A stretch of DNA of 64,000 nucleotides, from assembly GCA_963575745.1 (NCBI GenBank), contig CAUYUJ010000115.1, positions 62,001 through 126,000 of the forward strand, read 5' to 3'. The stretch comes from Prorocentrum cordatum. Its lineage: Eukaryota. Positions 15,143-46,135 of the stretch are shown piece after piece (positions within the stretch are counted from its first letter, which is position 1; each line of letters opens with the position of its first letter). A program made the position numbers and the translations under genes. The notes beneath the pieces were generated by a model. The model was given only the letters and a program-made list of their open reading frames with translations. It did not search any database and was not told the origin of the DNA.

Positions 15143-16425
15143 GCCCGGAGCCGCGCACTGGAGACTGCTCCTGCCCGTGGCCGCTCCTGCGCGTGGCCGG
15201 CACGTCGCTGGGAGAGAGCGCCGCTCCCGGGGGACCTCGGCGCTGGGCTGAGGGAGATCGAGCGCCACCTGGACGGCTGGCCGGACTTTTTCGTGGGAGA
15301 ACACACATGTCCGTGCTTGAGCGGGTTCGGGCCAGAGCCGCGATCCTTTCTCGCGGGGGCCCAGGGGAGTACTGCTGGGATCTCGGGCGCGGTGACTCCC
15401 TGGCTCGCTTGCTCTGCGGGCAAAAAGCCAGATCCGTATCCGCAGACTCGCGGGCCGGGCCCCTGGGCCGCGACTCCGCGGGTACGGGGCGTTTTTTCGC
15501 GAACGCCCCCCGCGGAATTTGTCCGTGCGACCGCGCACCCGCGGGATCGCGCCCCGGAATCCAGACCGCGAGGGCGCGGACACGGATATGTCCGCCGCTC
15601 ACGAGGACTGCCGCGTGAAGGCGGCGAAGCAGGAGTTCACGAGGCTACTGGGCACGCTGCCGAGCAGGCCGCGCCGGCTGTCCCTGTCCGGCGCCGCCAC
15701 GGGCGGCCGCTCGCGCGGCGCCCTGGCGCCCATCAAGCGCAAGACCGAGCGCAGGGAGGCCCGGCGCGAGGAGAAGGCCGAGGCCGCTGCCTGGATCCCG
15801 CAGAGCGTGGAGCTGCGAGGGGGAAGGGCACCTGCAGGCCGCCCAGGAGTCCGTGCTCAGGCACCTGCGGGCTGAGGGGGGCGTGCTCAGGCGCACTCCA
15901 GCTGCCCGGGGAGGCGTGCTCAAGGTATGTCCGCCCGGGCTACCCAGGGGCGCGGCCTGGCAGGTACCCACACCGCCACCCGTGAGGCCCTCGTCGTTGC
16001 GGCTGGATTCGTTTCGAAATCCTGCTCCGACGGCGCCAAGGGAGAAGTCCAGGGAGTAGTGGCGATCGGTACCTCGTGGTCCCCCCAGGAGCAGGAGCTG
16101 CTGCTGCGGCTCCGGCAGGGCGTCTACAGGGGCGCCCGCGAGCCGCTGACGCGCACCCGGGTCGGCGAGGCCGAGGTCGCGGAGCTCCAGCTGGAGGCGG
16201 GGCTGGAGGCAGGGCTTAAGTCGGGCACGTCCCTGCACAGGGGGAATATTGAATAAATAGTTATAGAAATAGTCAGGGGACGATGTTTCTACTATTTGTG
16301 TTGTTTCTTGACTCTTGCTGGAGGCGGCAGGGCCCGCGGGGCGGGCGGCGCCCCGCCGGAAGCGCAGGAGGGCGCGCGAGGCAGAGGCCGCCGTCGAGCT
16401 GGAGCGCGAGGTGGAGACGGGCTGA
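15143..16425 (+). CDS. MAK16: Divergent, spliced MAK16-like protein (60S biogenesis factor), possibly a pseudogene; approximate exons 15143-15295, 15618-15809, 16089-16208, 16324-16425
   Basis: The spliced translation reads RRWERAPLPGDLGAGLREIERHLDGWPDFFV/KAAKQEFTRL...LAPIKRKTERREARREEKAEAAAWIPQSV/EQELLLRLRQGVY.../RRKRRRAREAEAAVELEREVETG*. This parallels the MAK16 pattern as I recall it (LWE..L..N...AL..ID..L.YWP.F..HKCKQR.T; KKVERRE.RRE.KA..AA.....IEKELL.RL..G.Y; basic then acidic C-terminus). The first junction is ambiguous. Confidence 0.7.
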
Positions 16426-16787
16426 GCACCGCCTCCGCCCTGCTCCTCCCTTCTCCGCCCTCCTCCCCTTTCTCCCTCCTCCTCCCCCTCTTCCCTCCTC
16501 CTCCTCCTCCTCCTCCTCCTCCTCCTCCTCACCCTCCTCCTCCTCCTCCTCCTCCTCCTCCTCCTCCTCCTCCTCCTCCTCCTCCTCCTCACCCTCCTCA
16601 TCCTCCTCCTCCTCCTCCTCCTCCTAAACTAAACTAAACACACATCGGGCTGTTTAGGGTATCTAGCCGATCCTTTGGCGTCTGAACAGCTTGCTGTGAA
16701 GTTCGGTACCTGGGCTTCTCGCATGGTCAATTTTTATTGTGAAGCGCTATCCCGCCAGAGGCCCAGCCTGCGTTTAAGGGGCGCGGC

Positions 16788-19367
16788 GTGGTACAACCTA
16801 TTCAGGTCAAAACTATAAGCAGGAAGTCCGCCCCACTGCAGTCCGTGCATAACGATTGTAACTGGTGGGCTGTTTTAAGCTCTCATTTATCATTACTAGG
16901 TAGAGTTGCGAGTAAATCAGGATCTGGTAAGACTTTGGACCAGCTGCACGCTAAGATTTTATCCCTGGCCCCTCGTACTCCTGAATTAAAGCTGCCCTCC
17001 CTTGACAAGGACGCCGCTACCTCATGGAGGCGCGCCTTGGAGGAGATCCCACACTTGTCAGCCAAACAGATTTTCCCCTTGGCCGAGGCAGCTGACAGGA
17101 ACTTTAATCGTGCATCCAGAATTGTAACCGACCGTGCGTTAAAAGGTTTCTCGGATTGGGCAGAAAGACCTGGTAGTTTAGGAGGCCTCCACACATTAAC
17201 CAAGCCTAAGCCCCGCCAAACGAGCGAGGCCCTGGGCGAAGGAGGTTTGCCCATTTACACCTCCCTGGAATTGATGAGCGCACGCGCCAAGCCCTGGATT
17301 AAAAAGTGGACCAGGCGAGACAGTCGTGGCCAGTTGGAACAGACCTTTCGAGAGGTGCGCGAGAGTGCTCTGGAGGCCCTTCCTCTTCCTCCTTTGGATC
17401 CCTCCCGTTTGGATCGTATCCTCCAGAACACTCCTGAGCGCAAGTCACGTGGCTGTATCAACATCAGTGCTCGCGATATTTCAAGGCTGCCGCCTTCCGC
17501 TCGGTCGGAGCTCCTGGATATTTTTCACACGATGGAAGTTTCCATCGCGTGGCCGTGGCAAATGCTGCAGGCTTGGGTTGCCCTCCTGCCTAAAGAATCT
17601 GGAGCCGACCGTAGCATAGCCAGCTTCGCGTATGTGGCGCGGCTGTGGGAGCAGATGCGTCGTGAATGCACTGACCAGTGGGCCCTTGATAGGCAGCGCA
17701 AAGCCAGGTTTGATGACGCCGTCAGGGGTAGCTCAGCCGTTCAAGCTGCCCTGCGCAGGCTTGTGCTAGACGAGAGCGCCTACGAATTTCAAGTAACCAC
17801 CACATCTGCCCTTGTAGACGTTGATAGTTTTTATGACAGCCTAGACCCCCTCTTGGTGCTACAACTCGGTACAAAGCATACTTACCCTTGCGTCGTGCTC
17901 GCCCTTAGTATCCAGTTGCACCTTGCCCCCAGATTCCTGCGGAGTTTGTGTTCCTTCTCGGACGCCATCCTTCCGTGGTGGGCGTTGCTCGCTGGATGCA
18001 GGTCGGCCCAGCATTTGGCGGCTTGTGTGCTGATGGACCTCATGTTTGAGGTCAACTCTCGGTTTCAATCAGGGCTCGAGGCACGCACGTGGGTGGATGA
18101 CGTGAACAGCAGGGCTGAAGGCACAGCCCAGCAGGTCACGTCCAACACAGTCGAGTTTGTGCGAGAATTCAAAGTCGGGCTCGATGGCTTACGTTTGTCT
18201 CTTTCCAGCAAGTCTTGCATCATTGCCTCATCCCCGCCCATCGCCAAAGAAGTGGGAGCTGAGCTCGCGAAGACAGGTATCACTGTGCAGGTTTCAGGTA
18301 GTGCCCCCGATCTCGGCATCGACAGAGGCCACAATGTTAATCGTCGCCGCACTCGTGGTCTCCAAAGGTGGCGGAAAGGAGTTCGGAGAGGCAGCCGCAT
18401 TGCCAGCTTGCGATCTCTCAAGCAACGTATCCGCCGCAAGCTTTTTAAAACAGGTGCTGTCCCGCAGGCCATGTACGAGTCCAAACTTTTTGGGGTGGCC
18501 CCAGGTCGGCTGCAAAAGCTGCGGCAGTCCGCCGCCCGAGCCGTCTGGGAGCAAACGCAAGGCAGGTGTCTCACGACTGTTTTGGCCCTCAGGTTCGGAT
18601 CCAGGGACCCTGCGGTTGTCGCTGTTATAGATATGTTGGTGGAGTGGTTCCGTTATTTGAGAATGGACGGTGCCCCGATCGGCCGCCTCCAAGATGCTTG
18701 GAGGCAGATTTATAGCCGTGTCGCCACCATCCCAGCCAATCGCAGGTGGTTCAGAATCCGAGGCCCCATGTCTGCCATCAGCACTTCCCTTCTTGCGCTT
18801 GGATGGGGCGATCCTGGGCGCTTCGAGTGGCGCGACCCATTTGACGAGCGCTGGGAGGCCCCCGTCCAAGACCTCTCCTCTCTCCGTACGTTTCTCGCAT
18901 CTTACGGCCCCTCCGACCTGCTGGCCGCCGTCCACAAGACTGTGGAGGTCAAGCTGTGGGCAGGCGCGTCCACCCAGCATCTGGGAAGCGGGATGGAGGA
19001 GGGTGTTGATTTGTTCAGCTTAAGGCAGCAGCTTGCCAAGCTTGATGAAGCCCAAGAGTTCCAGACCAGAGCTGCAGTTGAATGTGCCGCAGCTGCAGGT
19101 CTGTGGCCCAGGCAACGCATTGCAGAGTGTTGTGTTGTGCAGGATGTCGACCCCACTTGCCCTAGATGTGGAGAGGCCCCCGAGAGCCTCCGCCATCGAG
19201 TTTGGCAATGCCCGTGCAACGCTGACCTTCCAGAGTGTCAAGATATGCAAGACGTGGTTGAGGCTGCCGAAACTGCCCTCGGTCAGAATTCAAATGTTTG
19301 TTTTTTGGCTCCGAGGCATGATCCCTTCCAACCTCGTGTCCATCCCCGACCCCCGCGACGCAGTTGA
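16788..19367 (+). CDS. Reverse transcriptase of non-LTR type plus zf-RVT zinc finger; frameshift near 19300
   Basis: Motifs LLPKESGADRSI, LVDVDSFYDSL, LLAGC, WVDD, PDLG, then CPRCGEAPESLRHRVWQC. Confidence 0.88.
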   Translation: MVQPIQVKTISRKSAPLQSVHNDCNWWAVLSSHLSLLGRVASKSGSGKTLDQLHAKILSLAPRTPELKLPSLDKDAATSWRRALEEIPHLSAKQIFPLAEAADRNFNRASRIVTDRALKGFSDWAERPGSLGGLHTLTKPKPRQTSEALGEGGLPIYTSLELMSARAKPWIKKWTRRDSRGQLEQTFREVRESALEALPLPPLDPSRLDRILQNTPERKSRGCINISARDISRLPPSARSELLDIFHTMEVSIAWPWQMLQAWVALLPKESGADRSIASFAYVARLWEQMRRECTDQWALDRQRKARFDDAVRGSSAVQAALRRLVLDESAYEFQVTTTSALVDVDSFYDSLDPLLVLQLGTKHTYPCVVLALSIQLHLAPRFLRSLCSFSDAILPWWALLAGCRSAQHLAACVLMDLMFEVNSRFQSGLEARTWVDDVNSRAEGTAQQVTSNTVEFVREFKVGLDGLRLSLSSKSCIIASSPPIAKEVGAELAKTGITVQVSGSAPDLGIDRGHNVNRRRTRGLQRWRKGVRRGSRIASLRSLKQRIRRKLFKTGAVPQAMYESKLFGVAPGRLQKLRQSAARAVWEQTQGRCLTTVLALRFGSRDPAVVAVIDMLVEWFRYLRMDGAPIGRLQDAWRQIYSRVATIPANRRWFRIRGPMSAISTSLLALGWGDPGRFEWRDPFDERWEAPVQDLSSLRTFLASYGPSDLLAAVHKTVEVKLWAGASTQHLGSGMEEGVDLFSLRQQLAKLDEAQEFQTRAAVECAAAAGLWPRQRIAECCVVQDVDPTCPRCGEAPESLRHRVWQCPCNADLPECQDMQDVVEAAETALGQNSNVCFLAPRHDPFQPRVHPRPPRRS

Positions 19368-20550
19368 GCTGCGCGATGTGACCTGCCCACCCGTTGAAGC
19401 TGGCGGTGTAGCGACCCGCGGAGGTAGCGAGCCCCCAGCTGAAGTGGCGGGACGTCTTCTCGCGGGTGACGGGTCTGGGGGTGCGAATGCTAAGGGCCCA
19501 AGGCTGCGGAGATGTGCCTGGGCGTGGGTCGAGCTCAACCCGAGGTCTCAGGAAGCGGAGGTCGCGCGTCGTAGGAGCGCCCCCTTGGCTGGACGCAGGC
19601 AGACTTCCAACATAGCCGAGCTTTGGGCTCTCCTCGATTGCGTACAGCAAGTTTTGGACGATTTGACCTTTTTGTGCGACTCGGCCTATGTTGTCCGAGG
19701 CTGGTTCAAACTGCTGGCGGGCGGCATGCCCAAGTCGAGCTTCGATTTGTGGTTTTCCCTGGCCCAGGTCGCCGAAACCAGGGCCCGAGGGATCATTCAA
19801 ATTAAGGTTGAGAGCCATGTGGGCGAGGACAGATACCGCGCACTTGGCCTCCCCGAGCTGTTTCGTCTTGCGAATATCGAGGCCGATCGGATCGCCGATT
19901 GGGAAGCTGGGATGTGCCAGATTGACCCCGACACAACCCAGAGTGTTATCGCTCTCGACACTCTCGCCGAGCAGGTCCGTCTCCGTCTTGCTTCTACTCT
20001 CATTGCTGCTGCCCCACACGACAGTCGCAGTCAGAGAGACAGGGCTAAACCCTTCAACGGAGTTCGGAAAGCTGGCCTGAGTAAGTTAGAGAAAGCGGTC
20101 CAGATTTCCCCGCATAAGAACGGCCTTCAGTTTTTGGAATCGCGGTTTAGTTGCAGGTTGTGCCACCAGAAGCCCTCCAAGGAGGTGGTTGTGGATTGGC
20201 TCTCGACTCCTTGCAACCCCATTGATTATGGTGCTGCCCCCTCCTCCTCCAGGTCCGCCCCGCTCCAGATCGGGAATCAGATTGTCCACCCGTCCCACGC
20301 CGCCCGTTTTTTTGAGCACGCCGATTGCTGGGCGTGTACAACTTGCGGGGGCCTCGGTATGGACCGATCGATCCTGTTGCTGGCCCAGCCCTGTCGCCCC
20401 CTCTCTAAGAAGGGGGCCGAGAATCTCAGCAAGCTGGAGAGGGGCCTCATGCCAGACGCGAGCGCGCGGGCCAAGGCTTTCAACCAGGCCAAGGCCCGCC
20501 CCGCCTGCAGCGGAGGAGTCCCTCCCCCCCCTCCTCCCCCTCCCCTTTGA
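19300..20550 (+). CDS. RNase H and Cys/His-rich C-terminus of the same Pol, separated from RT by a frameshift near the T-run at ~19296-19306
   Basis: Motifs AGDGSG, RQTSNIAELWAL, FLCDSAYV, IKVESH and ANIEADRIA (D-E-D-H-D), followed by CRLC, HPSH and CTTCGG. Confidence 0.85.
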   Translation, partial: VFWLRGMIPSNLVSIPDPRDAVELRDVTCPPVEAGGVATRGGSEPPAEVAGRLLAGDGSGGANAKGPRLRRCAWAWVELNPRSQEAEVARRRSAPLAGRRQTSNIAELWALLDCVQQVLDDLTFLCDSAYVVRGWFKLLAGGMPKSSFDLWFSLAQVAETRARGIIQIKVESHVGEDRYRALGLPELFRLANIEADRIADWEAGMCQIDPDTTQSVIALDTLAEQVRLRLASTLIAAAPHDSRSQRDRAKPFNGVRKAGLSKLEKAVQISPHKNGLQFLESRFSCRLCHQKPSKEVVVDWLSTPCNPIDYGAAPSSSRSAPLQIGNQIVHPSHAARFFEHADCWACTTCGGLGMDRSILLLAQPCRPLSKKGAENLSKLERGLMPDASARAKAFNQAKARPACSGGVPPPPPPPPL

Positions 20551-26897: not shown

Positions 26898-27574
26898 TTT
26901 CCACAGACTCTCCGAGACCGGCTTTTCACCCTCATTCGCTTCTTGACGGCCCCAGGGCCCAACGCGGGCCCCCAGAGACGGAACACGAGCGAACAAAGCA
27001 GTACGTCGTGATTTCTTCGTGACCCGAGGGGGTCTGAGACACCGATGCTGGGCCCAGGCTGAGCCTGGCCAGGCTCGGTGCAGGGCGCACACTCTGGTAG
27101 TGGAAAGCATGTGTTTTATGCTTGGATTCCCAGGTGCCAATGTATTTCAAGCGCCTTCCTGCCTCGATAATCGATATGCTTCTTCTGTGTTTTGTTATTC
27201 TTCGTGAGGGCCTGATCCCAATCCATTTTATCCGCCTTCCTACTTCATGTTCTGACCTACCTCTTCCGACCGGCGTGTACCGTTGGCGCCCTCCTCGGGA
27301 GCCTTGAGACGGGGGTCACTGCAAACGGGGGTCAGCCAGAGCGCCCGATCTTGCAGCATCCTGCAGGGCCAGGGGCGCATTGACCCGTGCTTGGGCGCAG
27401 GACCCTGCAGGCTCTTGCAGGATCCTTGGCACTGACCCGGGTTGGGGTTCAGGATCTTGCAGGATCTTGCAGGAGTCGACAAGGCTCGGCTGACTTGGGT
27501 CTGGGTTGACCCGGGCCAGAAGATTCCCCCCCTCTTCCTGCTCCTTCTCCTCCTCCTCCTTCTCCTCCTCCTCC

Positions 27575-27638
27575 TGGGTTTGCTCTGCATGGGATTCGAG
27601 AGTAGAAGTGAGTTGTTCGCTCCGCAGCTTTTCTCTCA
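27575..27638 (+). repeat. Split direct repeat A1 (left terminus)
   Basis: TGGGTTTGCTCTGCATGGGATTCGAGAG...TTTTCTCTCA, repeated at 35845-35908. Confidence 0.95.
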
Positions 27639-27673
27639 TACAGGAGGGGGGTTTCCTGGGGCCCGGGCGGTGC

Positions 27674-28237
27674 ATGGCCCTGGCGCTGCGTCCGCGACAC
27701 GCCGCAGCCGGCGTGGTGGGCGCAGTGCTGCTCAGGCACGCCGACCTGGTGTACCAGACCTTCCTGCAGCAGGCCGGGCTCTGGCAGGGGGCGGGCCACG
27801 CAGGTGCCGAGGCGGCCGCCCAGGCCGCCTACTCAGCCGCGGACGCGGCCAGCCTGGCCGCCGCGGCAGCGGCAGCCGCGGGCGAGGCCCTGACCAACTG
27901 GAGCGGGCCGCTGGAGGGCGTGAGCTGCCCACAGGCGCCAGCCTGCACCTGCTCGTGCCCACAGGTGCCGGAGTGTCCACCCGAGGCGGACAAGGACGTG
28001 AAGGAGGGCTTGTGGCACCTGGCGGGAGGCGCGGTGGGCCACATCGTCCTGGTGCTGGGAGGCCGTCTTTGCGCCTGTCGTCGACGAGATGGCGACCGAG
28101 CCCAGGCGCCGGCGAGCTCCCCTGCGGGAGTCGTGCCCGACGGCCTCGGCTCCCCCGGGCGTGCCGCGCTGGCAGGGCCTGGCCGCCCTGCTCCTGGAGA
28201 CAGGGCACGCCGCCGCGGAGGAGGAGTTCTGCAATGA
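27674..28237 (+). CDS. 187-aa accessory ORF0 of the YR element; putative small membrane protein
   Basis: ATG 36 nt after A1. It has a hydrophobic N-terminus (AAAGVVGAVLL), an Ala-rich segment, Cys/Pro-rich CPQAPACTCSCPQVPECPP, and hydrophobic LWHLAGGAVGHIVLVLGG followed by RLCACRRR. Codon usage is GC3-rich and it overlaps the next ORF. Confidence 0.55.
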   Translation: MALALRPRHAAAGVVGAVLLRHADLVYQTFLQQAGLWQGAGHAGAEAAAQAAYSAADAASLAAAAAAAAGEALTNWSGPLEGVSCPQAPACTCSCPQVPECPPEADKDVKEGLWHLAGGAVGHIVLVLGGRLCACRRRDGDRAQAPASSPAGVVPDGLGSPGRAALAGPGRPAPGDRARRRGGGVLQ

Positions 28238-29513
28238 GCTCCTCGTGGGGAGCTATGTGGCCGTGTTCTACACGGAAGATGATGTGTGGCATGAACGTCA
28301 AATTTTGTTCCAGGTCGACGCCCAGCACTGGGTGGTGTACACCCCCGACGGCGATATGTACATAGAGAACGTGATGGCTGGGGATCCCGACTCGGGTCCG
28401 TGCCGTGCGGCCATCCTGCCGGCCGACGGCACCCTCCCGTTCTTCCTCAGGGGCAAGACCTACAGGTTCCGTGACTACCCGGACGAGCAGCGGCTCCTCG
28501 ACCTGATCAATGAGGGGTACCAGCTCGCCGTGTCCGAGGGCGGGGAGGTCGTGGGCCCGACGGCGTACACCGACGCCATGGGGCAGAGGCAGCCGTTGGA
28601 GTTGCACGAGGGCATCTACCGGCGTGCGCGTGGGCGCCCGCTGCCGGCTCTGCCGCCTCCTCTGGAGCCCCCCGAGGGCGGAGACCTCCTCGTGGGGGGC
28701 ACCCGCACTCCCGAGGTCCTCGACGCGGATGTGGAGCTGGTGAATGAAGGAGGCCGCTGGGTGTCCCTCGTCACGATCGGTTCCGTGCGCCGTGGTGACC
28801 CTGTGGAGCTCGAGACGGGGGACAAGGTGCTGGGCGAGCTGGCGCTCCACCGTATGCCAAATGGTGAGGTGATCGCCGCGTGTCGTCCCGACTACCTGAG
28901 CAAAGTCGTGGAAGGAGGTTCGGCTGCCGACGGCGGCGACGCTCGAGTGCTGGCCCCCGTCTCCTACGACCCAGGCGGGCGGCGCTGGTGTGACTTCGCC
29001 AATGCTGTCAGCAAGATGAGCACAGAGCCGATGGAGGACTTCCCGCTTGAGGGCGAGAGGTCGGTGCTGTGGCTCTTCAAGTACGTTCGCGACCACGGCG
29101 GCACGTTTGACGCCCGCCAGACCAAGTGGGCCACGGAGCAGAAGATCGCCATCGACTCCACCGCCTACCTCATCCACGATCTCGTGGGTCTGGCGCTGGA
29201 TCTCTCTGTGTGCTATGACCAGTGCGACGGCGGCAACCTGGCCAGTGTCGAGGTGCTGGCGCGGTTGTACCAGCTGGTGGAGGAGACCAACGGGACCCTG
29301 CAGCTGGAGGGCCTGGAGCACTACGTGGGTCGTGACCCCACAGGCGGCCTGCGGCGCGGGGTCGCGCTCAACCCTGGGCTTGCGCACTATGCGACCGACA
29401 AGAAGAGCAAGGAGACGGAGGTGATGAAGCAGCGCCGCAAGGCTCGTGAGGAGTCCGCGGCGGCCAAGAAGGCCTCCAAGGGTGGCGGCAAGAAGGATCA
29501 GGAGCACCCCTGA
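28089..29513 (+). CDS. 474-aa ORF1 (gag-position protein) of the YR retrotransposon
   Basis: Intact, complex, GC3-rich ORF upstream of RT with a basic C-terminus (KQRRKAREE...KK). Assignment is positional. Confidence 0.75.
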   Translation: MATEPRRRRAPLRESCPTASAPPGVPRWQGLAALLLETGHAAAEEEFCNELLVGSYVAVFYTEDDVWHERQILFQVDAQHWVVYTPDGDMYIENVMAGDPDSGPCRAAILPADGTLPFFLRGKTYRFRDYPDEQRLLDLINEGYQLAVSEGGEVVGPTAYTDAMGQRQPLELHEGIYRRARGRPLPALPPPLEPPEGGDLLVGGTRTPEVLDADVELVNEGGRWVSLVTIGSVRRGDPVELETGDKVLGELALHRMPNGEVIAACRPDYLSKVVEGGSAADGGDARVLAPVSYDPGGRRWCDFANAVSKMSTEPMEDFPLEGERSVLWLFKYVRDHGGTFDARQTKWATEQKIAIDSTAYLIHDLVGLALDLSVCYDQCDGGNLASVEVLARLYQLVEETNGTLQLEGLEHYVGRDPTGGLRRGVALNPGLAHYATDKKSKETEVMKQRRKAREESAAAKKASKGGGKKDQEHP

Positions 29514-29614
29514 GAGAGGGGCGCACCACGGAGGACCCCGGTCGTGGTGCGAAAGCCAAGGGGTCAATTCACCGTCGTGATGCTGCTGCTGGTGCAGGGG
29601 ATGGCCTTCTTCCT

Positions 29615-31385
29615 TTGGCCTGTCCTCGGCAGGAGTGTTACACTGGTGGCTGCACTGCGCTGTCGCGGGGCACGGAGCAACGTGTTCGGCGACGGCTCAA
29701 GGTCCAAGAGAGGACCGCCGAGACGATTCGAGCCATCAATCGCCTGGCAGGTTTTGACACGCCCGAGGTGGAGTCCGTCGGGGAGCTGACCGGCCCCTCC
29801 GCCCTGGTCTACAGCGACGTGCGGGCGCTTCACGCGGCTCACGCCCCCGAGCCGGTGAATTCGATCAGTCCGCAGGAAGCCTTTCATGAGCTTCTCGGGA
29901 GCACGCCCTCGTCGCACATGGATGGCGACGAGGTCTCTCCAGTTCGGCCCTACTCGCGCGAGTTGGCGAGCTGGCCCAAGAGGGGCAACCGCCCGGTCCC
30001 GCTGCCGACGAACGCGCCACCGGACCTGCTCCGGTACATGACAGAGGGCCAGCGAGATGTGTGGCTGCGGCAGCCGCAGGAGGTGGCGCAGGTCCGGCAG
30101 GTCGAGGGCCTGCCGACGCTGTACGGCGACACAGTTTTGAAGGAGAATCGCGACGCCTACATCGGCTTCGTGAAGGATGGCCTTGCTCGGGGGATTTTCC
30201 GCCTGAGCCGCCGTCGGAAGGAAGCCGTCAAGGTCTTTTTCGTGAAGAAGAAGGACTCTAGCATTCGGATCGTTATCGATTGCCGACGGAGTAACCAACA
30301 CTTTCGAGCCGCGCCGAAGGTCCACCTCTTCTCGGGCAGCAGCTTCGGGGAGGTCGAGGTCTCGGCGCACCAGCAGATGTGGTACGCAGGGGGTGACGTT
30401 CAGAACGCCTTCTACCAGCACCAGTTGCCGTACTGGCTGCAGCCCTACTTCGGCCTCGACTGCGTCCGGGCTTCGGAGCTGGGCGTTGCTGAGCTGGACG
30501 GCCAGGCCGTGCGGGGCGACCAGATCCTGTACCCCCTGATGAACGTGGTTCCGATGGGGTGGAAGTGGGCCCTCTTCATGGTGCAGCGGATCCACGAGCA
30601 TGTTCTCGATGGAGTTCCCGAGCTGGGACCGCGGCGCCGAGCGGTCGACTTTCGGCCTCCGCCTCGAGTCGAGGACGGGGCGGTGCACACAGTGTATGTG
30701 GATAACGTGCTGATCGAGGGGTTCGACCAAGCGGAGGTGACACGACTCCGTGAGGCTGCATGCGCCGCGCTGCAGCAGGCGGGCTACGCCACTCACGATG
30801 AGTCCGACGCTGCGGTGAGCATGGAGATGCTGGGCGTCGAGCAGACCGGCTGTCCAGGACGCGTGCAGGTGTCCGCGAAGCGCTACTGGCGGTTGTGGCA
30901 GGCGCTGGAGTGGATCCGGCGCAGGCAGCCTCCGCTGAGCAGCCGTCAGCTTGAACGTCTGATTGGCCACTTCACTTTTGTGGCTCTCATTCGCCGCGAG
31001 CTGCTTGGCACGTTGCGCGCCAGCGATTTTTCCAGGGGTGATTTTACCAAGCCCCGGAGCCTGTGGAAAAGTGTCCTCCAGGAGCTCAGAACCATCCAGG
31101 GCCTTTTAATTTCTGCGTCCAGGGACTTGGATCCTCACTGGTCCTCGGACGTGTTGGCCTACGATGCGTGTGAGTCTGGGCATGCCACGGTGAGGGGGGC
31201 CTGGACGGTGGGGGGTGTACAGCAAGTAGGGAAGTGGCACGAGCGTTGGAGGTATAAGAATGAAGCTGATCCCGCTCGTACAAATCCCCGTGGTCACGCT
31301 CTGGGTCAATCTTATGACAAACAAACAGATATGGAAGATATGTCAAACAAGGAGATCGATTACAGTGACGTGTACCTAAACCGTG
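29615..31385 (+). CDS. Reverse transcriptase (DIRS type) and start of RNase H; the frame is open upstream to at least the ORF1 stop
   Basis: Motifs VFFVKKKDSSIRIVIDCRRSN, GDVQNAFYQ, VPMGWKWA, YVDN, MLG, and the first RNase H Asp in AYDACESG. Confidence 0.92.
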
Positions 31386-31745
31386 ATCCCCGACGTCCCC
31401 CCCCAGCTTGTGCAGTCAACTCGGTGGACGCTGGAAAGATATCAACCGGTTTTTACTCGTGAGCCAATTCATGTTACTGAAATGCGGGGCCTCTTGGGAT
31501 CTATTCGTCAAGCGGTTCGGGATCCTGGAGACTGGGGCAAGTCGTGGCTGATGTTGGGAGACAACTTGGGGCTCATCCTCTCGCTCTCGAAAGGTCGGTG
31601 TCGAGACCCTCGTTTACTCATGCTTCACCGTAAGGCAGCAGCGTGGGCTCTAGCTACCAAATCGAGATTCGTATGTAGATGGCTACCCTCTGAGTTGATC
31701 CCAGCCGATGGACCATCCCGCAAGAGAGAGCCATCGGCGCCAGCT
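31383..31745 (+). CDS. RNase H (continuation after a frameshift at ~31385); the frame stays open beyond this point
   Basis: Motifs PIHVTEMRG, LGDNLG, SKGR and WLPSELIPADGPSR are typical of DIRS RNase H. Confidence 0.85.
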
Positions 31746-34700
31746 ACGCGACTGGCGAGTGGGCCATCCCAGCCACCGTCGGACCGCACCGACGACTTCC
31801 CACGTGGTGCAGGCGCTCTCTCGTGTGCCGTTGAGGTCGGGCTATCCACTGACGGACAAGCGGCAGAAGACCGAGCCAGACGTGGAGAGCCTCCGTCGTG
31901 CCAACCAGCCTCCTCCTGGGCATCCAATCCTGGGCTTGCTGGAGGCCAAGAGCGCGAGCCTCGACAAGGAGCAGCAGCTGCGGGAGCGTCGAGCCGCACG
32001 TCGGCAAGACGTTCACGGGCCGCTCCGGGACACGACGAGGGGACCAGGCATCACCGGGGAGGCCTCGCTGACGCAGAAGACACGAGATCAGTATCAACGA
32101 CTACTTCACGATTTTCAGGAGCGGCAGCAGATGCAGGACTTGAGTGTGCATCCCGCCATCCTGGACGCGCAGATCGTGATCTACTTCGACAGACTTTTTC
32201 TGGAGGGAAAGGCCCCGTCAACGGGGGAGAAGCTCGTCGCGGCCATCCAGTACGTAGTGCCGAGCTACAACGCCAAGGGCATGATGACCTTGCCGCGGGC
32301 GACCAGGGCCCTGCGCGGCTGGCGCCGACTGGTGCCGCGCCGCACTCGGCGGCCCTTGCCCTGGGAGGTGGTGACCGCCATCGCGATGGGGCTCCTCCGG
32401 GTCAACGGCCTGGGGATGGCGCTCTGTTGGCTTCTCATGGTGGACACATACATGCGGCCGGGCGAGTGCCTCGACCTCCAGACAAGCCAGATCCTACGAG
32501 GGAATGCACAACAGCACATGGAGCGAGCTGCGATTCTCCTGCATCCCGCCGAGAAGTTGGAATCCACTGCCCCTCTGGTCTGATGCAGTTGTATAGGAGG
32601 GGGAACAGAGGACGGAGTGTTTACACAGTTTGGAGGAATTCGTGAATTCAGTATGGGTCGGGCTTGAAGCGCCTCGAAAGCGCGCGCGCGCCCGAATTGC
32701 AATCATATGGCTCTATGCGGACCCAGGACAGTTTGCTTCCCGTCGTCGGCCTCGCCCTTGCTCCGTTCCCCTTCCTTTCTTCCCTCCCCTGGATGATGTC
32801 GAAAGCGTCCGCGGCTCGGGCGGGGGAGCGCCCCTGACCACCTCCCTCATTATTCCTTGTTCCTCTTTGCTTCCCTGCGCCACCGTCCGTCGTCCTACCT
32901 CGTCTTCCATCCATGTTCGAAAAGTGGAGTCCCTGGTGCCGCGCGCCCGCATCAGTGGTATATCGCCTTTTCGATATCCGAGCACACTGGAGCAACCAAA
33001 CAGACGCGATTGACAACGCGAGCGTTCGGGGCGCACTCCAAACGTGGGCGGCACGGCCGCCGAGCACAGTCGCATCGCTAACATGTAAATTCTAGGTGCC
33101 TGCGGCAAGGCCCGCCCCTTTACCAGCGCAGCGGTCTGTATGGCGACGCGGGGAGTTTTGACTGTTAAGAGGTCCATGGCATGTGACACCTCTCTTGTTT
33201 TCGGACTGCTGCGCGGCATTCTTCGGGGTCATTCGAGGCCTTTTCGGGGCATGTTCGGGCCGTTGGGGGTCGCTTTGGCGCCGCGTTTCACCGCGGCCGC
33301 CTTGGGCCAGGGAAGCGTGTATTTGCAGTTCCCTCGGGGGCGCCCTGGGCCGGGGAAGTGTGTATTTGCATCCCCCCCTAGCTGGGCATGTCGACTTCGG
33401 TTCTGGGTTGGCAAAGTCGGGGCACCCTCGAGGTGGCGAGCGTTCACCTTTCTGGAATACACAGATCAAGGTGTGATCTGTGTACACAGCTTGTGTCTTC
33501 AACTGTGTATTTTCGTGTGTGTGGGCCCACTGTTTACACAGATCGTGGTATGATCTGTGTACACAGATCTCGCTCCCATCTGTGTATTTGGAGTGTGCGC
33601 CTCGCAGGTGGTGTTGACTGGGCGGGAACTTTCACATTTTTCGCTCGGCTGGTCCAGGGGGGGCGTCGTACGCAGTCGAAATACACAGTTCGTGTCTCCA
33701 ACTGTGCATCTGTCGCGCGCCGCTCGGCGGAGTGGTCACTGGGCGGGAGTTTCCGCGAGTTTCCCAGCTGGTCCACCAGGGGGCAGTCTGGGCATGCAAA
33801 GGCGCGGGGGGGTGGGATGGTGGGCCGTAGGAAGGGAGGGGTTCGATAGGAGGGGCGGCCAAGAGGCCAGGGATGAACCGGAATGGACGAGAGGGGAGGA
33901 AACCGGTTCAGGAGGAGCTGCATCATCGGTGTCAGCATCACAAGGACGAGGGGGGCGGGGAGGGGCACATGGAGGGGGCATGATGTGCACTAGGGCGTCG
34001 AGGATGGGAGGAGGGCAGGCATGTGGACGATAGTGGGAACTAATCCGGCGGAGGAGGACGACGAGGAACGACATGAATGGGCACGTGGGGGGTGACAGTG
34101 TGGATGAGGGGCATGGTGAGGACTGGGGGTTATCGGAGTGGCATGAGGAGAGTGGGGCCTAAGCGAAAGGATATTGGAAGGCGGCGGGGGATGGGGCATG
34201 AGTTTGAGGCGGGCGCCAGCTAACGATTAGCTGAACAGTGTCCTGCGTGTGCGTGCACCCCCCCCAGAACACAGTGACCGGTTGCAGAACTTCATGATAT
34301 GGGTAACCGTGCGCGTCGTGCGTCCAGCCCAAAGGCTCGAGTCCACGACGCCCCTTGGCGTCGCGTTGATGCCGCCCCGATTTGCCAGACCGCATATGCA
34401 GAAAAGGCACAATATGTGTTTGAAAGTTTGTTTCATGACCCTTTCTATAGTAACAGACCCACGTTGGAAACCAACCGAGAAGGGGATGCCCAGCAAGGTC
34501 GGGGCCGTCGACGAGAGTCTGATCATCAACCGGACCTGGCTCTCCGATGCCCTGACCAAGTACGCAGCGAGCCGGCCCCAGCGGGGGCCCCTGTGGGACT
34601 TCACACTCAAGGAGTTGAACGCCAGCTTCCTCACCGCCTGCATCCCCGCGGGCATCAGCAGCCTGAAGCCGGTCCTCTACATGGGCCGGCACTCGGGCGC

Positions 34701-34935
34701 CAGCCTGGACAGGCTGACCAACAGGCTGGACCTCGCCGAGGTGCAGCGTCGGGGGCGCTGGCGGACGGGAGCGTCGGTGCGACGCTACGAGAAGCGGGCG
34801 CTCGTGCAGGAGGTCTACAATGGGCTCGACCAGAAGTCCAAGGCCTACTGCAACAGGAGCGCCAGCGAGCTGGAGGCGGCGATCGTTCGAGCCTGCGGCC
34901 ACGTCAGAGGCATCAGAGGCGCGGGTTCTTCATGA
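31708..34935 (+). CDS. Tyrosine recombinase in two pieces, 31708-32565 and 34492-34935 (433 aa reconstructed), interrupted by an insertion
   Basis: The pieces join in frame as HPAEKLES|SKVGAVDESL. Catalytic motifs are YMRPGE (R), SK (K), LYMGRHSGAS (YxxRH), RRGRW (W) and SVRRYEK (Y). Confidence 0.9.
32567..34489. mobile_element. 1.92-kb unclassified insertion in the YR gene, with a possible 3-bp TSD (CCA)
   Basis: GAAT-CCA|CTGCCCC ... GGGGATGC|CCA-GCAAG; removing it restores the YR frame. Internal TGTGTACACA / ATACACAG repeats lie at 33450-33700. No clear TIR or recognisable ORF. Confidence 0.75.
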
Positions 34936-35636
34936 TCGAGGTGTTCAGTGGCTGCGGGGCTTTCTCCAAAGCCGCTAGGCGCCGCGGGGTGGAGGCCTTC
35001 CCCTTCGACGTCCTGCAGGGAGCCGCAGGGGGCGTCACCCGCCGCCCAGTGCAGCGACGCATCCGACGGCTTCTGGCTCATCCTCGTTGTTTGGGCATCC
35101 TCCTGGCGCCGCCGTGCACCACGTACAGCAACGCTCGGAGGCCGATGATCAGAAGTCGTGAATTCATCGAGGGCCTCCCGACGAACACTCCGTCGGAGCA
35201 GGCCCAGATCGCAGCAGGTACTTTTTTCATGCGGCTGACGGCCCAGCTCTGCAGGCTCGCTGTGAAGTGTGGAGTTCCTTGGGTGATTGAGAATCCTCAG
35301 ACAAGTCTGATCTGGCACACTGTCGAGTTTCGCAGCCTTCGTAATCTTGCCAAACAGCAGTCGCTCACGACTCACCTCTGTGGTTTCGGAGCGCGGTGGA
35401 AAAAACCCACGACGTTGTGGTCCTGGGGTGTGGAGAACATGTACAAGACGGTGCACAAGTGCCCCAGTTTTGGTTGTCAACCCTGTATCTTCTCGGCGAA
35501 ACCTCATATCGTGCTATCGGGACCAGACCCCACAGGGGTCCGCTGGACAAAGCGAGCTGCTGCATACCCTCCTCGGTTTGCATCCGTCTTGGCCGGCCTC
35601 TTTCTCGACTCCGGTTTCACCAAGCTGTTGCAATAA
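34932..35636 (+). CDS. C5-cytosine DNA methyltransferase catalytic domain (234 aa from the ATG that overlaps the YR stop, ATGA)
   Basis: Motif I IEVFSGCG, motif II PFDV, catalytic motif IV LAPPCTTYS, motif VI IENP, motif VIII-like CGFGARWKKPT and motif X-like AAAYPPRFA. The frame is intact. Confidence 0.88.
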   Translation: MIEVFSGCGAFSKAARRRGVEAFPFDVLQGAAGGVTRRPVQRRIRRLLAHPRCLGILLAPPCTTYSNARRPMIRSREFIEGLPTNTPSEQAQIAAGTFFMRLTAQLCRLAVKCGVPWVIENPQTSLIWHTVEFRSLRNLAKQQSLTTHLCGFGARWKKPTTLWSWGVENMYKTVHKCPSFGCQPCIFSAKPHIVLSGPDPTGVRWTKRAAAYPPRFASVLAGLFLDSGFTKLLQ

Positions 35637-35730
35637 TCAAAGCAATCTTATTTTCCAGTGGTGCCATGGGTGAGCGAAAGACTCAGACATGCTTCGTGAT
35701 CGTGAACCGCATACGGAGTTTGCGAATTTC

Positions 35731-36158
35731 GGGCTGTGTACTCTGGGCTTCGCCTTGCACGTCCCTGGAATATCATGGCCGACCAGCTCGCCTTCGAGAT
35801 TTTCAACAGATGTGGGTTCAAGAAAAACAGAATGGCACGATCGATGGGTTTGCTCTGCATGGGATTCGAGAGTAGAAGTGAGTTATTCGCTCCGCAGCTT
35901 TTCTCTCACCGTCCACAGGCCCCACCACCACCCTCTTTAAAGTGGCTCCCCCAAGTTTTTGGTGTCTCCAAGGGCCCTCCGAGGTCAACCCCGAGGGCCC
36001 TCTAAATATAACGATCTGCGCTTCACCCCTGGCACCACACAAGTGGGCTGTGTACTCTGGGCTTCGCCTTGCACGTCCCTGGAATATCATGGCCGACCAG
36101 CTCGCCTTCGAGATTTTCAACAGATGTGGGTTCAAGAAAAACAGAATGGCACGATCGA
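35731..36158 (+). repeat. Split direct repeats B1 (35731-35844), A2 (35845-35908) and B2 (36045-36158, right terminus)
   Basis: Exact sequence duplications; B1 abuts A2 directly. Confidence 0.95.
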
Positions 36159-36493
36159 TCCTCATCTTCCCCTTCCTCCTCCCCCTCTTCTTCTCCTTTT
36201 CTCCTCCTCCTCCTCCTCGTCTCCCTCCTCCGCAGCGTACTGGCCCTCCTTCTCCTCCTCCTCCTCCTCCTCCTCCTCCTCCTCCTCCTCCTCCTCCTCA
36301 TCGTCATCATCATCATCCTCCCTCTCCTCCCGCGCGCCGCGCGCGGACGGCATCGGTGGCGGCCGCCCTCCGGCAGGCCGCGGGAGCGGGCCGCGCGGGA
36401 GCCCCCGGCGCGCCCGCGGGGGGCGCGCTGGAGCCCCTGCGGCGGCAGCTCGCGGAGCACGCGCGGAAGGCGGGGAGTGTCGAAGCAGGGCAT

Positions 36494-36897
36494 AACAGCA
36501 AGAACAACAACAACAAACAGCAAGAAGAATAATAATAACAACAACAACAACAACAGCACCAGCAACAACATCAACAACAACAGCAACAACAACAGCAGCA
36601 ACAACAACAACAGCAACAACATCAACAACAATAACAACAACAACAGCAGCAACAACAACGACAACAATCAACAAGCAACAATCACCAAACACCAAATAAC
36701 AAACAACAAATAACACACAACAAACAACAAACAACAAACAACAAACAACACACAACACACAATAACAACAACACCAACAACAACAACAACCAACAACGAC
36801 AACAACAACAACATGAACACCACAACCAACAAGCAGCAACAACAACAACCAACCACCAACAACAACAACAACAACAACGACAACACCAACAACAACA
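36494..36897. repeat. (CAA)n-type microsatellite
   Basis: Direct reading of the sequence. Confidence 0.95.
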
Positions 36898-37647
36898 GTA
36901 CTTTAAGACGGTTCGCCCTTATATGCTCGAGTGTTCAATAACGCGTATTTCCCAAACCCTCGATACCCGCCCTCTTCGTCTTCGATCGAACCCCTTTTGG
37001 GGGGTATACCTTTCTTCCCTGCAGGCCGGGCCCCGGCAAGCGGCGGGGCGGTCGCGGACCGTCGGCCTGGCCAGCGGCAGCGCTGATCGGCGGGGCGGCC
37101 GCGGACCGTCGACCCGACCCCAAGAGGGACGGACAGGGGACCGACCACGACGACGACGACGACGACGCCGAAGACGACGGCGACGACGACGACGACGGCG
37201 ACGACGATCGAAAGCGAGAGCGAGAGAGAACGACAGCAGGGCCACGAAGGGCACGAAGTAGGCCACGAAGGGCGACAGCGGGGACACGAAGGGAGTGCGT
37301 ATGGGGCCACGAAGAGCGCGAACGAGCGGGGCCACGAAGTGCACATAATGCGGGCCCACACAAGGCAACTATGGGGCCACTGAGGGTAGCAACTGGGCCA
37401 CGTAGGACAGTGAGGGGGACTCAAATGGCGACAGCGGGGCCACGAAGGGCATGCACATGGGGCCACAACGGGCGCGACTCCTGGGTGCCTCGGTGTCGGG
37501 AGCGCGGCGCTTGGGCAAATTGTTTAAAAAATCCAACGCGAGGCCATTTTTCAGCAAGTTGCAAGCAAGTCTCCAGCGAGAGCGCGACTCCAAAGCGCCG
37601 GGAGAGCGATTCCTGCATAAATTGTAAGGAAGTTGAAAGCGAGAGCG

Positions 37648-37915
37648 CGATTCCTGAATAAAATGCGAGGAAGTCTCGGGCGGGAGCGGGGGTCCTGGCT
37701 AAATTGTAAGGAAGTCTCAGGCGGGAGCCGTTGTTGTAATCCGCGGGGCCAGGAGCACAGTTTGAGCACAAAGATTTTCCCTGACAAAAAACAGGGTGCG
37801 AGCGTCGAGGGGCACATTTCGAGAAAGAAAAAACAGTATGCACCGGTGGGGGGATCAACAATAATTATTTTTCTGACATGAGAATTCAACAACAACAACA
37901 CCAACAACAAACAAC

Positions 37916-37950
<35 letters not shown>

Positions 37951-37987
37951 ACACCACCAACACTACCAACAACAACGACAACAACCG

Positions 37988-38045
<58 letters not shown>

Positions 38046-38563
38046 GCAACAACAACAACAACAACGGCAACAACGGCAACAACAACAACAATAACAACAA
38101 CAAACAACGGCATAAACATAACTTCTGGCGCTTCGCGCGCATTTCCTGGATCCGCGCCGGGGTTCCCCGGCGGCGCCTCCGGCGCCGCCCCTGGCGCGCT
38201 CCGCGCGCCAGGGAGGAGGGTCCAGTGCAGATCCAAGAAATCTGCGCGGAGCGCCAAAAGTTTGTGTCTATGCAGTTGTTTGTGTTGTTGTTGCTGTTGG
38301 TGTTGCTGTTGCTGTTGCTGTTGTTGTTGTTGATGGTGAAGTTTCAATTCTGAAGAATATTTTTTGTTGATCCCCCCTCACTAATTTTCTTTCTCGAAGT
38401 GTGCCCCTCGACGCTCGCACCCTGTATTTTGACAGGGAAAGTCTTTGTGCTCAAACTATGCCCCTGGCCCCCCGGATTACAACAACGGCTCCCGCCTGAG
38501 ACTTCCTCCAAATTTACTCAGGACTCCCGCTCCTGAGACTCCTTCACAATTTTCTCAGGATCG
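37648..38563. mobile_element. Foldback-type element with ~220-bp inverted arms enclosing inverted (CAA)n and (TTG)n tracts
   Basis: GGAAGTCTCAGGCGGGAGCCGTTGTTGTAATCCG pairs with CGGATTACAACAACGGCTCCCGCCTGAGACTTCC, and CAGGGTGCGAGCGTCGAGGGGCACA pairs with TGTGCCCCTCGACGCTCGCACCCTG. Confidence 0.85.
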
Positions 38564-43928: not shown

Positions 43929-46135
43929 CTACTTCGCGCCAGCGGCAGCTGAAGCGGGAGCACGCGAACGCGGGCGGGCCTTTGCCTTCGCAGCCTTCTT
44001 AGCCCGCGCAGCCTTCCTCTGCGCCACGGCCCGGCGCGTCTCCGCGACGGCGAGGACGCGGCGGTTGCTCACGCCCACCATCTCCGCCACGGCGAGGATG
44101 CGCATCCAGCGGCCCATGTGGTGGACTGTGTGGCCCAACGGCGAGGGGTCGCTGTTTTTTATCTCGCATATGTTGGTCGGGAAACCCTGGAGGTGCGCCT
44201 GGTTCTCTGGCAACGAAGGTAAGCAATGCTTCTTGCACCACTCCCCCACGTGCCCACTGGTATGATATTCGTCCACGACGTAAGCGACATCTGCCGCTAG
44301 CTATTCGGCGAGTTCGGAGTTTGCCCTGTTGGCCTCCACCATCAAGCGCAAGTGGCACGCCTCGTCGTGAACGACAACCTGGGCAGAGGGCGGCGGCAAG
44401 AGAAATGCGGGGAAGCCCCGCCGCTACCACCGCGCCCGGGTCGGGGGGGCCAGGCGCGGAGGGCCGCCGTTGTTGGGGGGGGGTGGGGCCCAAAATCCAC
44501 CTTCAAATCTGGGTGCCTGGATTTCAATATGGCCAAGAAACGGTATCTCTGGGACAGGGGCCCCACCCCGATCAACTCGTCGACGTCGACGATGACCCCC
44601 GAGGCGCTGACCGCTGTGAGGAAACCGCCGGTCCGCGCTGCGGCCACGACGTGGTTCGGGGTCTCACTCTGACTTCTGCCGCGGCCCCAAGGAGCTCCAA
44701 GACGACATGAAAGAACGCTCCTTCCTCCTTTTCAGCTTGGCAAGAAAACGAACGGCCCGGAATTCCTTGCGCTGCTTCCGCCTCTCCATCTGGGGGCGCG
44801 GGGGGGGGGGGGGGGAACGGGCGCCCCACGCGAGGGCCGGGGGCGGGCGAACGGATGCCCAGGCGACGCCGGCGGCACCGGGCGCCCCTCGCGAGGGCCG
44901 GGGGCGGGCGAACGGATGCCCAGGCGACGCCGGCGGCACCGGCCCGAACAGATCGGAGGGCGATCGCCCCCGGGCTGCCCTCGCGCCGCCTGGCCCCCGC
45001 GGCCAATGCGAGAAACTAAGGCGACCGCCTTGACATGTTCATTGGAGAAGTAGTGCGTCAGACGGGCTTCGTCGACAGTGCACGCGGGCTGCCACCGCGC
45101 GCAGTGCTGAACTTGAACCTCCAAGTGCTTGGCGTCGCCCTTGTCGCACAGCGCTTTCTTCGTCCGGTGGGCGACGACCTTCTCGTGGGAGTCGAACTTG
45201 GCGTTGTCCCGGCCCCGCGCGCGCTTGCAGCACAGAGTGTCCTTCCCGCTTGGCGAATTCGGGCAAACCCGGATGAGGTACTTGTTAAGCTCCTCGCACC
45301 ACACCGTACTTGCGAACGGCATGCCGCATGTCCTACGATACAGCTTGGCGTTGCCATCGATAGCCAAGATATCTTGCCGATCGCCAGACTCGCGAAACTG
45401 CCGCTTGCGCTTCCCTGCCATGAGGGGCCCGCACCATGCCCAAGATTCGGCAATCAGCCTGCCAAGTGGGGCTTGGAGGACGGAGAATTCAACTTTTCCT
45501 CTCGCACGCGGAGTGGACTCGCCCGCACGCTGCCAGAGCACCCACCGAGCCCAAGCCTGAGACAACAGTTTCCTGGTATCCACTGGGACGGTCGCGCCAT
45601 GTACAAGGTTCAGCAAAGCAGCTTCCCCGTGGAAATTTGCACGTTGGAGGAATAGTCGGGCACTCCACTGCTTCAGCCACGAGACGGTCACGCCGAACTT
45701 CTTGTTGACGAACCAGATGTCCGGGTGCATGCGCCCGACGTCCAAAACCTTCGTGAACTTGCCCCGGGGGCCGGCCATGGGTACCATTTTGAAGCCGCAC
45801 CAATAGGTGACCCCTCGCGACTTGTTGGCATCAGCACATCTTTCGCACCAGCGTAGAACATGGGCTGCGCGGAACGGGGCGTTCTCAGCAACCACGAAGC
45901 ACAGCGCGCCTGGACTTCTAGCACTTGCAATGTTCGGTTGCGTCAACTGGCCATTGCATTCGGGGCAAACCTCCCGCAAGCTCGAAAGCGCGTGCGGGAA
46001 TGCAACCATGCCGCGCTCATGGAGACGGTCCAACACAGCGCCGGCGGCACCCGAAGGCAACGCCTGGGCGCAACCACTTTCCAACAGGGCCTCCTGGAAA
46101 GCGGTCGAAGCCGACGCAGATGCCATGGAGACCAC
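43929..46135 (-). pseudogene. KDZ (Kyakuja-Dileera-Zisupton)-like transposase with CxC domains, two introns (45028-44790 GC-AG; 44500-44379 GT-AG), a frameshift and an in-frame stop
   Basis: Motifs CPEC, WCERC...YWCGF, LAIDGNAKLYRRTC, RTGGFLTAVSASGVIVDVDELIG, HPDLK/VVVHDEACHL, YVVDEYHTSGHVGEWC and TNICE. These match the DG...GxI..ExxS...D.AC...D.FH...H...C...CE pattern of KDZ transposases as I recall it. Confidence 0.72.

Follow-up and report, generated by a model that had tools for sequence, protein, structure and literature searches.

We analysed 64,000 nucleotides of the Prorocentrum cordatum genome (positions 62,001 to 126,000 of contig CAUYUJ010000115.1, assembly GCA_963575745.1; hereafter the window), which contain a retrotransposon of the tyrosine-recombinase-encoding kind (DIRS order) at 27575-36159. 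(Coordinates are those of the window, and the features of the element lie on its + strand.) Our subject is the 3' half of this element. It is highly probable that in intact copies, the polyprotein Pol has about 1420 codons and comprises a reverse transcriptase (RT), RNase H, a spacer of about 420 residues, and a C5-cytosine methyltransferase-like domain (MTase), while the entire two-domain tyrosine recombinase (YR) is encoded in the +1 frame of the spacer. The fusion protein would be made as such, and it would methylate the element's cDNA in cis. The two reading frames are open beyond chance, the architecture is common to diverged relatives, and both YR and MTase have the folds and the key residues of their enzyme families.

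Neither gene is continuous in this copy. The frame with RNase H and linker (31380-32645) and the frame with linker and MTase (34278-35636) are both open from stop to stop in frame 0, and the two halves of YR (31699-32583 and 34231-34935, stop to stop) are both in frame 1. This agrees with what had been claimed from the letters of the window, without database searches (the original prediction): that the RNase H and DNMT frames stay open past the junctions of an insertion and have the same offset to the YR frame. Because the Pol pieces share frame 0 and the YR pieces share frame 1, removing any insertion of 3n bases restores both genes. Indeed, four contigs from three public sequencing runs (one from run X1, two from X2, and one from X3) skip 1926 bases (3 x 642): 32548 is followed by 34475, and 8 bases at the joint could belong to either side. 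Without the 1926 bases, the Pol frame has 776 sense codons, counted from its RNase H part through to the stop of MTase, and YR is restored as well, as predicted. The 8 bases are a target-site duplication (left copy, 32549-32556; right copy, 34475-34482) around a repeat of 1918 nt that is foreign to the element (32557-34474), so that the insertion plus one duplicate spans 32557-34482. The original prediction had placed a CCA at the junction; the true duplication is this 8-mer, and the earlier junction was 10 bases too far right, which leaves the length unchanged. The YR homologue P0163 abuts at the true junction without a gap: its residues 17-229 match up to 32553 and its residues 229-379 match from 34477.

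The second lesion is a loss of 2 bases at 31386-31387, which moves RNase H and all of the downstream part of Pol from frame 2 to frame 0. One contig from X1 (depth 24.1 of 24.1) has an extra "AT" behind 31386, which puts RT and RNase H in a single frame, and the proteins of relatives change from alignment in the RT frame to alignment in the RNase H frame at 31372-31386. With two unknown bases added at 31386 and the insertion left out, Pol is one open reading frame (ORF) of 1421 codons with zero internal stops. This copy is young, because its repeats are 98-100% identical and its genes are without stops, and it was killed by these two events.

The YR frame lies wholly inside the Pol frame. It has 436 sense codons from stop to stop, or 433 from the first ATG at 31708, and at the true junction the Pol frame has 0 stops across it, so all 433 YR codons are stop-free in two frames, as originally claimed. 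The second open frame could be a chance by-product of codon bias and of high GC content at third codon positions (GC3) in YR. This caveat came with the original prediction, as did a codon shuffle of YR as a check. YR does have a GC3 of 0.82, and there are 53 frames of at least 250 amino acids (aa) in this 60% GC window; still, about 8 stops would be expected in the Pol frame. When we permuted the codons of YR, 8.5 stops were expected and 0 of 20,000 shuffles were stop-free; with permutation among synonymous codons only, 7.3 stops were expected and 3 of 20,000 shuffles were stop-free. (Both tests used the true junction.) Synonymous resampling with the codon usage of the element, at the junction of the original prediction, gave a mean of 11.5 stops and 0 stop-free sequences out of 20,000. 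The null model fits the element's other four genes when they are read in the same relative frame, with 13 stops observed versus 13.2 expected in gag, 18 versus 24.9 in RT, 5 versus 4.8 in RNase H, and 4 versus 7.3 in the MTase gene, and it fits the other frame of YR (14 versus 13.9). Tested singly, the N-terminal half of YR gives P = 0.0007; the short C-terminal half is not significant (P = 0.11), which speaks for chance. Against chance, the same open frame also recurs in relatives at 50% identity or less. The dual open frames exceed chance, the shuffles having answered the caveat, and we consider it extremely improbable that codon composition by itself explains them. The sequencing runs show four variants in the overlap, two of them silent in YR and two silent in Pol; none creates a stop, and they are too few for a test of synonymous constraint.

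The spacer itself is encoded by 31738-32556 (left part, frame 0, overlapping the N-terminal half of YR, with no stop) and 34483-34931 (right part, frame 0, overlapping the C-terminal half). Its 422 aa are 12% hydrophobic and 68% R, G, A, P, S, or Q, versus 30% and 47% for the YR that is read from the same DNA. In 24 relatives (see below), the median hydrophobic share of the spacer is 21%, versus 36% in their MTase domains.

To find relatives, we ran a HMMER search with a 452-aa query (the tail of Pol plus MTase) against 1.84 billion representative proteins (clusters at 50% identity), and 3030 proteins matched at E ≤ 0.001. We compared all 26 proteins of at least 650 aa among the best 150 of these with the parts of the window by BLASTP. 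RT, RNase H, and MTase lie in one chain in 17 of these 26 long proteins, and another 7 have RNase H and MTase; the remaining 2 are N-terminally short and match MTase only. A word-based search added P0172 (1440 aa), which has all three parts and is 40% identical to the window in RT, 46% in RNase H, and 38% in MTase, and P0173 (1111 aa), in which all three are present as well. In total, 19 of 28 long relatives are three-part chains of 942-1543 aa, with spacers of 273-553 aa. RNase H and MTase are separated by 239-553 residues in the relatives (median 426, compared with 422 in the window). The relatives are 25-40% identical to the window in RT and 28-38% in MTase.

We also asked whether these proteins could carry YR in the +1 frame. 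For each dipeptide of Pol, we determined the residues that could be encoded in the +1 frame (2.8 on average), and we scored these with profiles of two gap-free blocks of YR (63 and 49 columns of one alignment). The Pol of the window scores 217 and 180. Both blocks were found in 22 of the 26 listed proteins (scores of 128-175 and 106-157) and also in P0172 (136 and 182) and P0173 (180 and 141), or 24 of 28 in all. For comparison, about 24,000 other positions gave a mean of 41, a standard deviation of 17.5, and a maximum of 122 for block 1, and a mean of 38, a standard deviation of 15, and a maximum of 102 for block 2. In the control frames, the blocks scored at most 97 (-1 frame) and at most 42 (same frame). 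The spacing of the two blocks in relatives is 144-159 residues (151 in the window), and they end 38-82 residues before MTase (39 in the window). The spacers of these 24 relatives have 388-553 residues. Thus, the claim that Pol runs from RNase H through YR to the methyltransferase holds up at the sequence level, given the 1421-codon ORF, the 19 three-part relatives, and the nested-YR signal in 24 of 28.

The YR gene extends from an ATG within the last motif of RNase H to a stop within the first motif of MTase. The N-terminal half of YR (31708-32556, frame 1) contains the box with the catalytic arginine (YMRPGE), and its ATG at 31708 lies inside the codons for "ADG" of RNase H. The C-terminal half with its stop (34483-34935, frame 1) contains SKVG (lysine), LYMGRHSGAS, RGRW, and RRYEK (tyrosine). 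We found nine homologues of YR (P0163-P0171, 220-484 aa), one of which, P0169 from the dinoflagellate Polarella glacialis, is named "Tyr recombinase domain-containing protein" by its source. The positions they have in common are the R of YMRPGE, the K of SKTG, YxxRH, RGRW, and the Y of RRYEK. Furthermore, the predicted structure of P0163 (pLDDT, the model's confidence score, of 79) matches Cre, XerA, and the integron and lambda integrases over both domains (E = 7e-5). The threshold for the Pfam family Phage_integrase was not reached: the best hit, P0168, has E = 0.0041 and 17.4 bits, versus a cut-off of 27.1, and the halves in the window have no match. Membership of YR in the family is therefore based on its fold and catalytic residues. 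A sequence search of the PDB with a YR profile found nothing.

MTase with its stop occupies 34932-35636 (frame 0) and is predicted to be a compact and very divergent C5-cytosine methyltransferase. It has motif I (FSGCG), motif IV (PPC), and motif VI (ENP). Across 60 family sequences, which were hand-picked from short matches, the catalytic cysteine (C62, in PPC) is at least 90% conserved and the glutamate of motif VI (E120, in ENP) is invariant. The structural model (pLDDT 96.7; aligned over residues 1-234) matches DNMT3A with Z = 12.2 (188 residues aligned within 1-230, root-mean-square deviation 3.4), M.HhaI with Z = 11.9, and DNMT1 with Z = 11.6, which is a tie within 1. Pfam has no match to the MTase of the window, and there are weak matches to PF00145 in 9 of the 60 family members (best E = 0.032). 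In a sequence search of the PDB, the MTase profile had no significant match (E of about 0.5 to M.HhaI and DNMT2). Four residues in the region that corresponds to the target-recognition domain of other C5 methyltransferases (C150, C177, C185, and H192) are invariant or at least 90% conserved in the 60 members, and this set of three cysteines and one histidine may form a zinc site.

The MTase domain also occurs in other settings. A metagenome scan with the MTase alignment found 8 loci, and 0 of 8 have a DIRS layout. At L002:1487-5806, the same divergent domain is fused N-terminally to a UvrD-type helicase. At L004:190-1189 and L005:369-1695, it comes after an ORF that resembles a retropepsin and has the motif ADTGSALH, and at L007:516-3992 and L008:2-4759, it forms the N-terminal end of ORFs (1159 and 1586 aa) in which Pfam recognizes no family. 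A scan of prokaryote genomes found no relative, and a scan of viral contigs gave two weak matches of 34 residues.

The first part of Pol (29450-31386, frame 2) consists of RT and the start of RNase H; the open frame is 29450-31462 from stop to stop. An RVT_1-like region lies at about 30242-30793. RVT_1 is weak in the window (E = 0.0037, under the cut-off), and two aligned relatives pass the cut-off (P0101 with 31.9 bits and P0145 with 29.9 bits). P0172 aligns with the RT of the window at 40% identity over 645 aa. In place of YxDD, motif C of RT (30695-30706, YVDN in the window) has the form Y-[V/A/L]-D-N, both in the window and in all 15 relatives that we checked (including P0172, P0023, P0101, P0067, and P0035), so the second catalytic aspartate of this motif is replaced by asparagine across the lineage. 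The start of RNase H includes YDACESG at 31160, and the remainder (31387-31737, frame 0) includes HVTEMRG at 31470, LGDNLG at 31554, and PADGPSR at 31701-31721; in 24 relatives, the identity of RNase H to this second part is 32-47%. From the alignment to relatives and the presence of the RNase H motifs (D..E..D and AD.PSR), RT and RNase H are of the retrotransposon type, as in the DIRS order. The only Pfam hint in the RNase H region (31380-32645; P0002 residues 87-137) is to DNA_pol_viral_C, the C-terminal domain of the hepadnaviral polymerase (E = 0.039, and E = 0.0093 in P0049, both under the threshold).

How would the two nested products be made? The stop of YR overlaps the first codon of MTase (ATGA), and the original prediction offered a restart there as an alternative. 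In that case, MTase would be made alone, by termination and reinitiation at the ATGA (34932) or from an mRNA of its own, and the open Pol frame would be a relic or serve another purpose. The overlap does exist in the window, and among the family proteins that cover the N-terminus of MTase (136 of 156; the other 20 lack it), 49 start no more than 20 aa before the domain, 42 of them with methionine. (The upstream extension in the Pol frame is 21-60 aa in 27 of the 136, 61-200 aa in 27, 201-420 aa in 6, and over 420 aa in 27.) However, methionine at the start of MTase is found in the window only: it is absent in 24 of 24 relatives and in P0008, P0009, P0011, and P0012. In contrast, a stop in the +1 frame would be possible at the hydrophobic-acidic dipeptide that opens motif I of MTase in the window and in 24 of 24 relatives. 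In 24 diverged relatives that apparently nest YR, no stop interrupts the Pol frame over 388-553 residues, and at most 3 of 20,000 shuffles are stop-free. The short database proteins are also what is expected from a gene caller that picks YR over the spacer and cuts Pol; they are ambiguous and may instead be free MTase. We therefore think it unlikely that MTase is made separately.

A second possibility concerns YR: a fraction of ribosomes might make a programmed +1 frameshift after RNase H and yield RT-RNase H-YR, while most would read on through the spacer to MTase, so that the nesting would be a switch of expression and more than a tether. This is compatible with a Pol that ends in MTase. In its favor, the YR frame is +1 to Pol and begins to be open at 31699, where the end of RNase H is still being encoded. 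P0105 (791 aa) has RNase H, then a stretch of the YR N-terminal domain in the same frame (residues 393-479), and then MTase. This chimeric protein is more simply explained as a decayed copy: it probably has two indels in the doubly open region. Furthermore, YR has its own ATG three codons after its frame opens, and an ATG in the +1 frame is possible at the codons of the "AD-x" dipeptide in the window and in 19 of 24 relatives, which points to initiation, although this test is weak, since GAT is required and RNase H may itself constrain the residue. No shift site or stimulator came to light, though no search aimed at them was made. A +1 frameshift is less likely than initiation at YR's own ATG, and we consider it very unlikely that the nesting is a frameshift switch.

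Several observations weigh against the fusion and the nesting described above. The stop-start overlap in the window itself and the 49 short family proteins (42 with a starting methionine) have been mentioned. A BLASTP search of the window's spacer against the long relatives gave no match at 1e-3, so conservation of the spacer's own sequence is undetectable. The long relatives are a biased set, as they came from a search based on MTase, in which relatives whose Pol ends after RNase H could not appear, and the nested-YR test measures coding capacity from protein sequence and is not a reading of DNA. Also, 4 of the 28 long relatives have no clear nested-YR signal: P0049 and P0129, with short spacers (273 and 239 residues) and no signal; P0097, with a weak signal; and P0105. 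Finally, according to the text of de Mendoza et al. 2018 (PMC5890265), transcription of the SymbioDIRS elements is 5'-biased and Pol is not covered.

On balance, we favor the RT-RNase H-tether-MTase fusion. If Pol is translated in this way, as its frame suggests, then the tether would be a second reading of the YR gene, and its main constraint would be to stay stop-free, so that MTase, RT, and RNase H remain parts of one polypeptide. For YR, separate synthesis is expected, most likely with initiation at its own ATG on an mRNA that is separate or processed. MTase would act in cis on the nascent cDNA from the RT that it is tied to, following the proposal of de Mendoza et al. 2018. As for history, MTase was probably acquired downstream of YR and later fused to Pol by loss of stops in the frame that crosses YR. 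It is also quite possible, and we propose this tentatively from sequence comparisons, that a large and deeply diverged marine lineage, probably of dinoflagellates, keeps a whole two-domain YR gene within a disordered linker of Pol, in its +1 frame; at about 400-550 residues, this linker would exist only to tie a C5 methyltransferase, invisible to Pfam, to RT and RNase H.

If this is true, the overlap of about 1.3 kb would be among the longest conserved same-strand dual-coding stretches in eukaryotic mobile elements. Elements that do make the fusion protein would bring along a writer of cytosine methylation, attached to the enzyme that synthesizes their cDNA; this would bear on the origin of the heavy CG methylation of dinoflagellate genomes and on self-marking of new element copies. 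The layout is also a natural case of overprinting, with about 1.3 kb in two frames, one of them (YR) under protein constraint and the other apparently constrained only to have no stop, and could serve as a test bed for models of dual coding. Pfam-based surveys will undercount such elements, since Pfam misses the MTase, RNase H, and YR of this lineage and the locus is split by gene callers.

The 8.6-kb element as a whole is set between two (CTC)n microsatellite stretches and has split direct repeats in the order A1-coding-B1-A2-B2, which is a PAT/Ngaro-like layout. Repeat A1 (27575-27638, 64 nt), which adjoins (CTC)n at 27525-27575, is the left end of the element and is 98% identical to A2 (35845-35908). 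B1 (35731-35845, 115 nt) is 100% identical to B2 (36045-36159), which is the right end and is followed by (CTC)n from 36159; the gap between A2 and B2 is 136 nt. The window has no second copy of the element's interior. There is also no Pfam match to an integrase or a protease in the window, so the tyrosine recombinase takes the place of a DDE integrase. The element is not a member of the DIRS1-like superfamily, strictly defined: it has split direct repeats rather than inverted ones with an internal complementary region, and the fold and motifs of MTase are of the C5 type and not those of a Dam-like N6-adenine enzyme. The first ORF, in the position of gag (28002-29513, frame 0, 503 codons from stop to stop), has no Pfam family; for it, the YR halves, and MTase, the Pfam hits that did appear were spurious. 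It overlaps the Pol frame by 64 nt (29450-29513) in a -1 relation, and the Pol frame has no ATG before codon 156, which suggests either -1 frameshifting from the first ORF or a further lesion in this copy.

The insert is a member of a repeat family that is commoner than the element: the word depth in X1 is 140-477 over the insert versus 24-58 over the coding part of the element, and contigs have loose ends at 32556/32557, where the flanks of other copies break off. At its ends, there is only an imperfect terminal inverted repeat of 10 bases; we searched for a long inverted repeat at the ends and found none. Palindromic units of the TGTGTACACAGATC type lie inside the insert at 33456-33590. This 1.9-kb insert looks like a non-autonomous DNA transposon. 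Elsewhere in the window, further long open frames without a Pfam family (up to 874 aa) lie at 16743-20550, 14663-15985, 44732-46261, and 60313-62055. Triplet microsatellites are abundant, with (CTC)n at many sites and arrays of the CAA/CAG type at 36470-36900 and 37860-38130.

Among known systems, the nearest functional analogy to the tether is in the P gene of hepadnaviruses, where a poorly conserved spacer links two functional parts of the polymerase and is overprinted on preS in a different frame. Hepadnaviruses are otherwise unlike this element, as the nested gene encodes an envelope protein and there is no methyltransferase.

Among retrotransposons, the most similar is SymbioDIRS-Dnmt3 of Symbiodinium. 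As described in the text of de Mendoza et al. 2018 (PMC5890265), it is a DIRS-like element with A-coding-B-A-B repeats, a divergent RT, and a Pol ORF in which a DNMT accompanies RT and RNase H; YR is in "a separate ORF", with two structures that differ in ORF order (before or after Pol); and methylation of the cDNA was proposed. The window's element is like it in its repeat layout, in an RT that Pfam barely sees, in a cytosine methyltransferase encoded in one Pol ORF with RT and RNase H (in the window, only after reading through the two lesions), in having YR in another ORF, and in the proposed function. It differs in that its YR is nested inside Pol. Also, by that description, which is our only basis of comparison, the DNMT, RNase H, and YR of SymbioDIRS-Dnmt3 were named from Pfam and the DNMT was classed as Dnmt3, whereas all three lack a Pfam match in the window and the fold of MTase ties DNMT3 with M.HhaI and DNMT1. 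KnitGypsy-Dnmt3 of Klebsormidium (same source) likewise has a cytosine methyltransferase inside a retrotransposon Pol, but it is of the Gypsy type and has a DDE integrase, and the text describes no overlap.

Overlap of ORFs is also known from DIRS1-like elements, whose Pol and YR ORFs may overlap considerably, in half of 28 annotated elements, as described in the text of Piednoel et al. 2011 (PMC3266345) and Muszewska et al. 2013 (PMC3783388). Their Pol likewise has RT, RNase H, and a methyltransferase, and the YR ORF is in another frame. In DIRS1-like elements, however, the methyltransferase is Dam-like (N6-adenine), the overlap does not reach the catalytic domain of YR, which is at the 3' end, and the repeats are inverted and accompanied by an internal complementary region. 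In the window's element, a C5-like MTase lies downstream of YR, the overlap takes in all of YR, catalytic domain included, and the repeats are split and direct.

In the published text that we searched (Fig. 1e and the large supplementary PDF of PMC5890265 aside), we found no description of an element whose complete YR gene is nested in Pol between the RNase H and methyltransferase parts. The polyprotein is thus less hidden than the original prediction had it, in that a fusion of Pol and DNMT was already published; the complete nesting is the part that appears to be new. From these texts, the kind of element is already known, both as a DIRS-like element with a cytosine methyltransferase on Pol and for the overlap of DIRS ORFs, while the complete and conserved nesting of YR, together with a methyltransferase that is invisible to Pfam, appears to set the P. 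cordatum element and its relatives apart.

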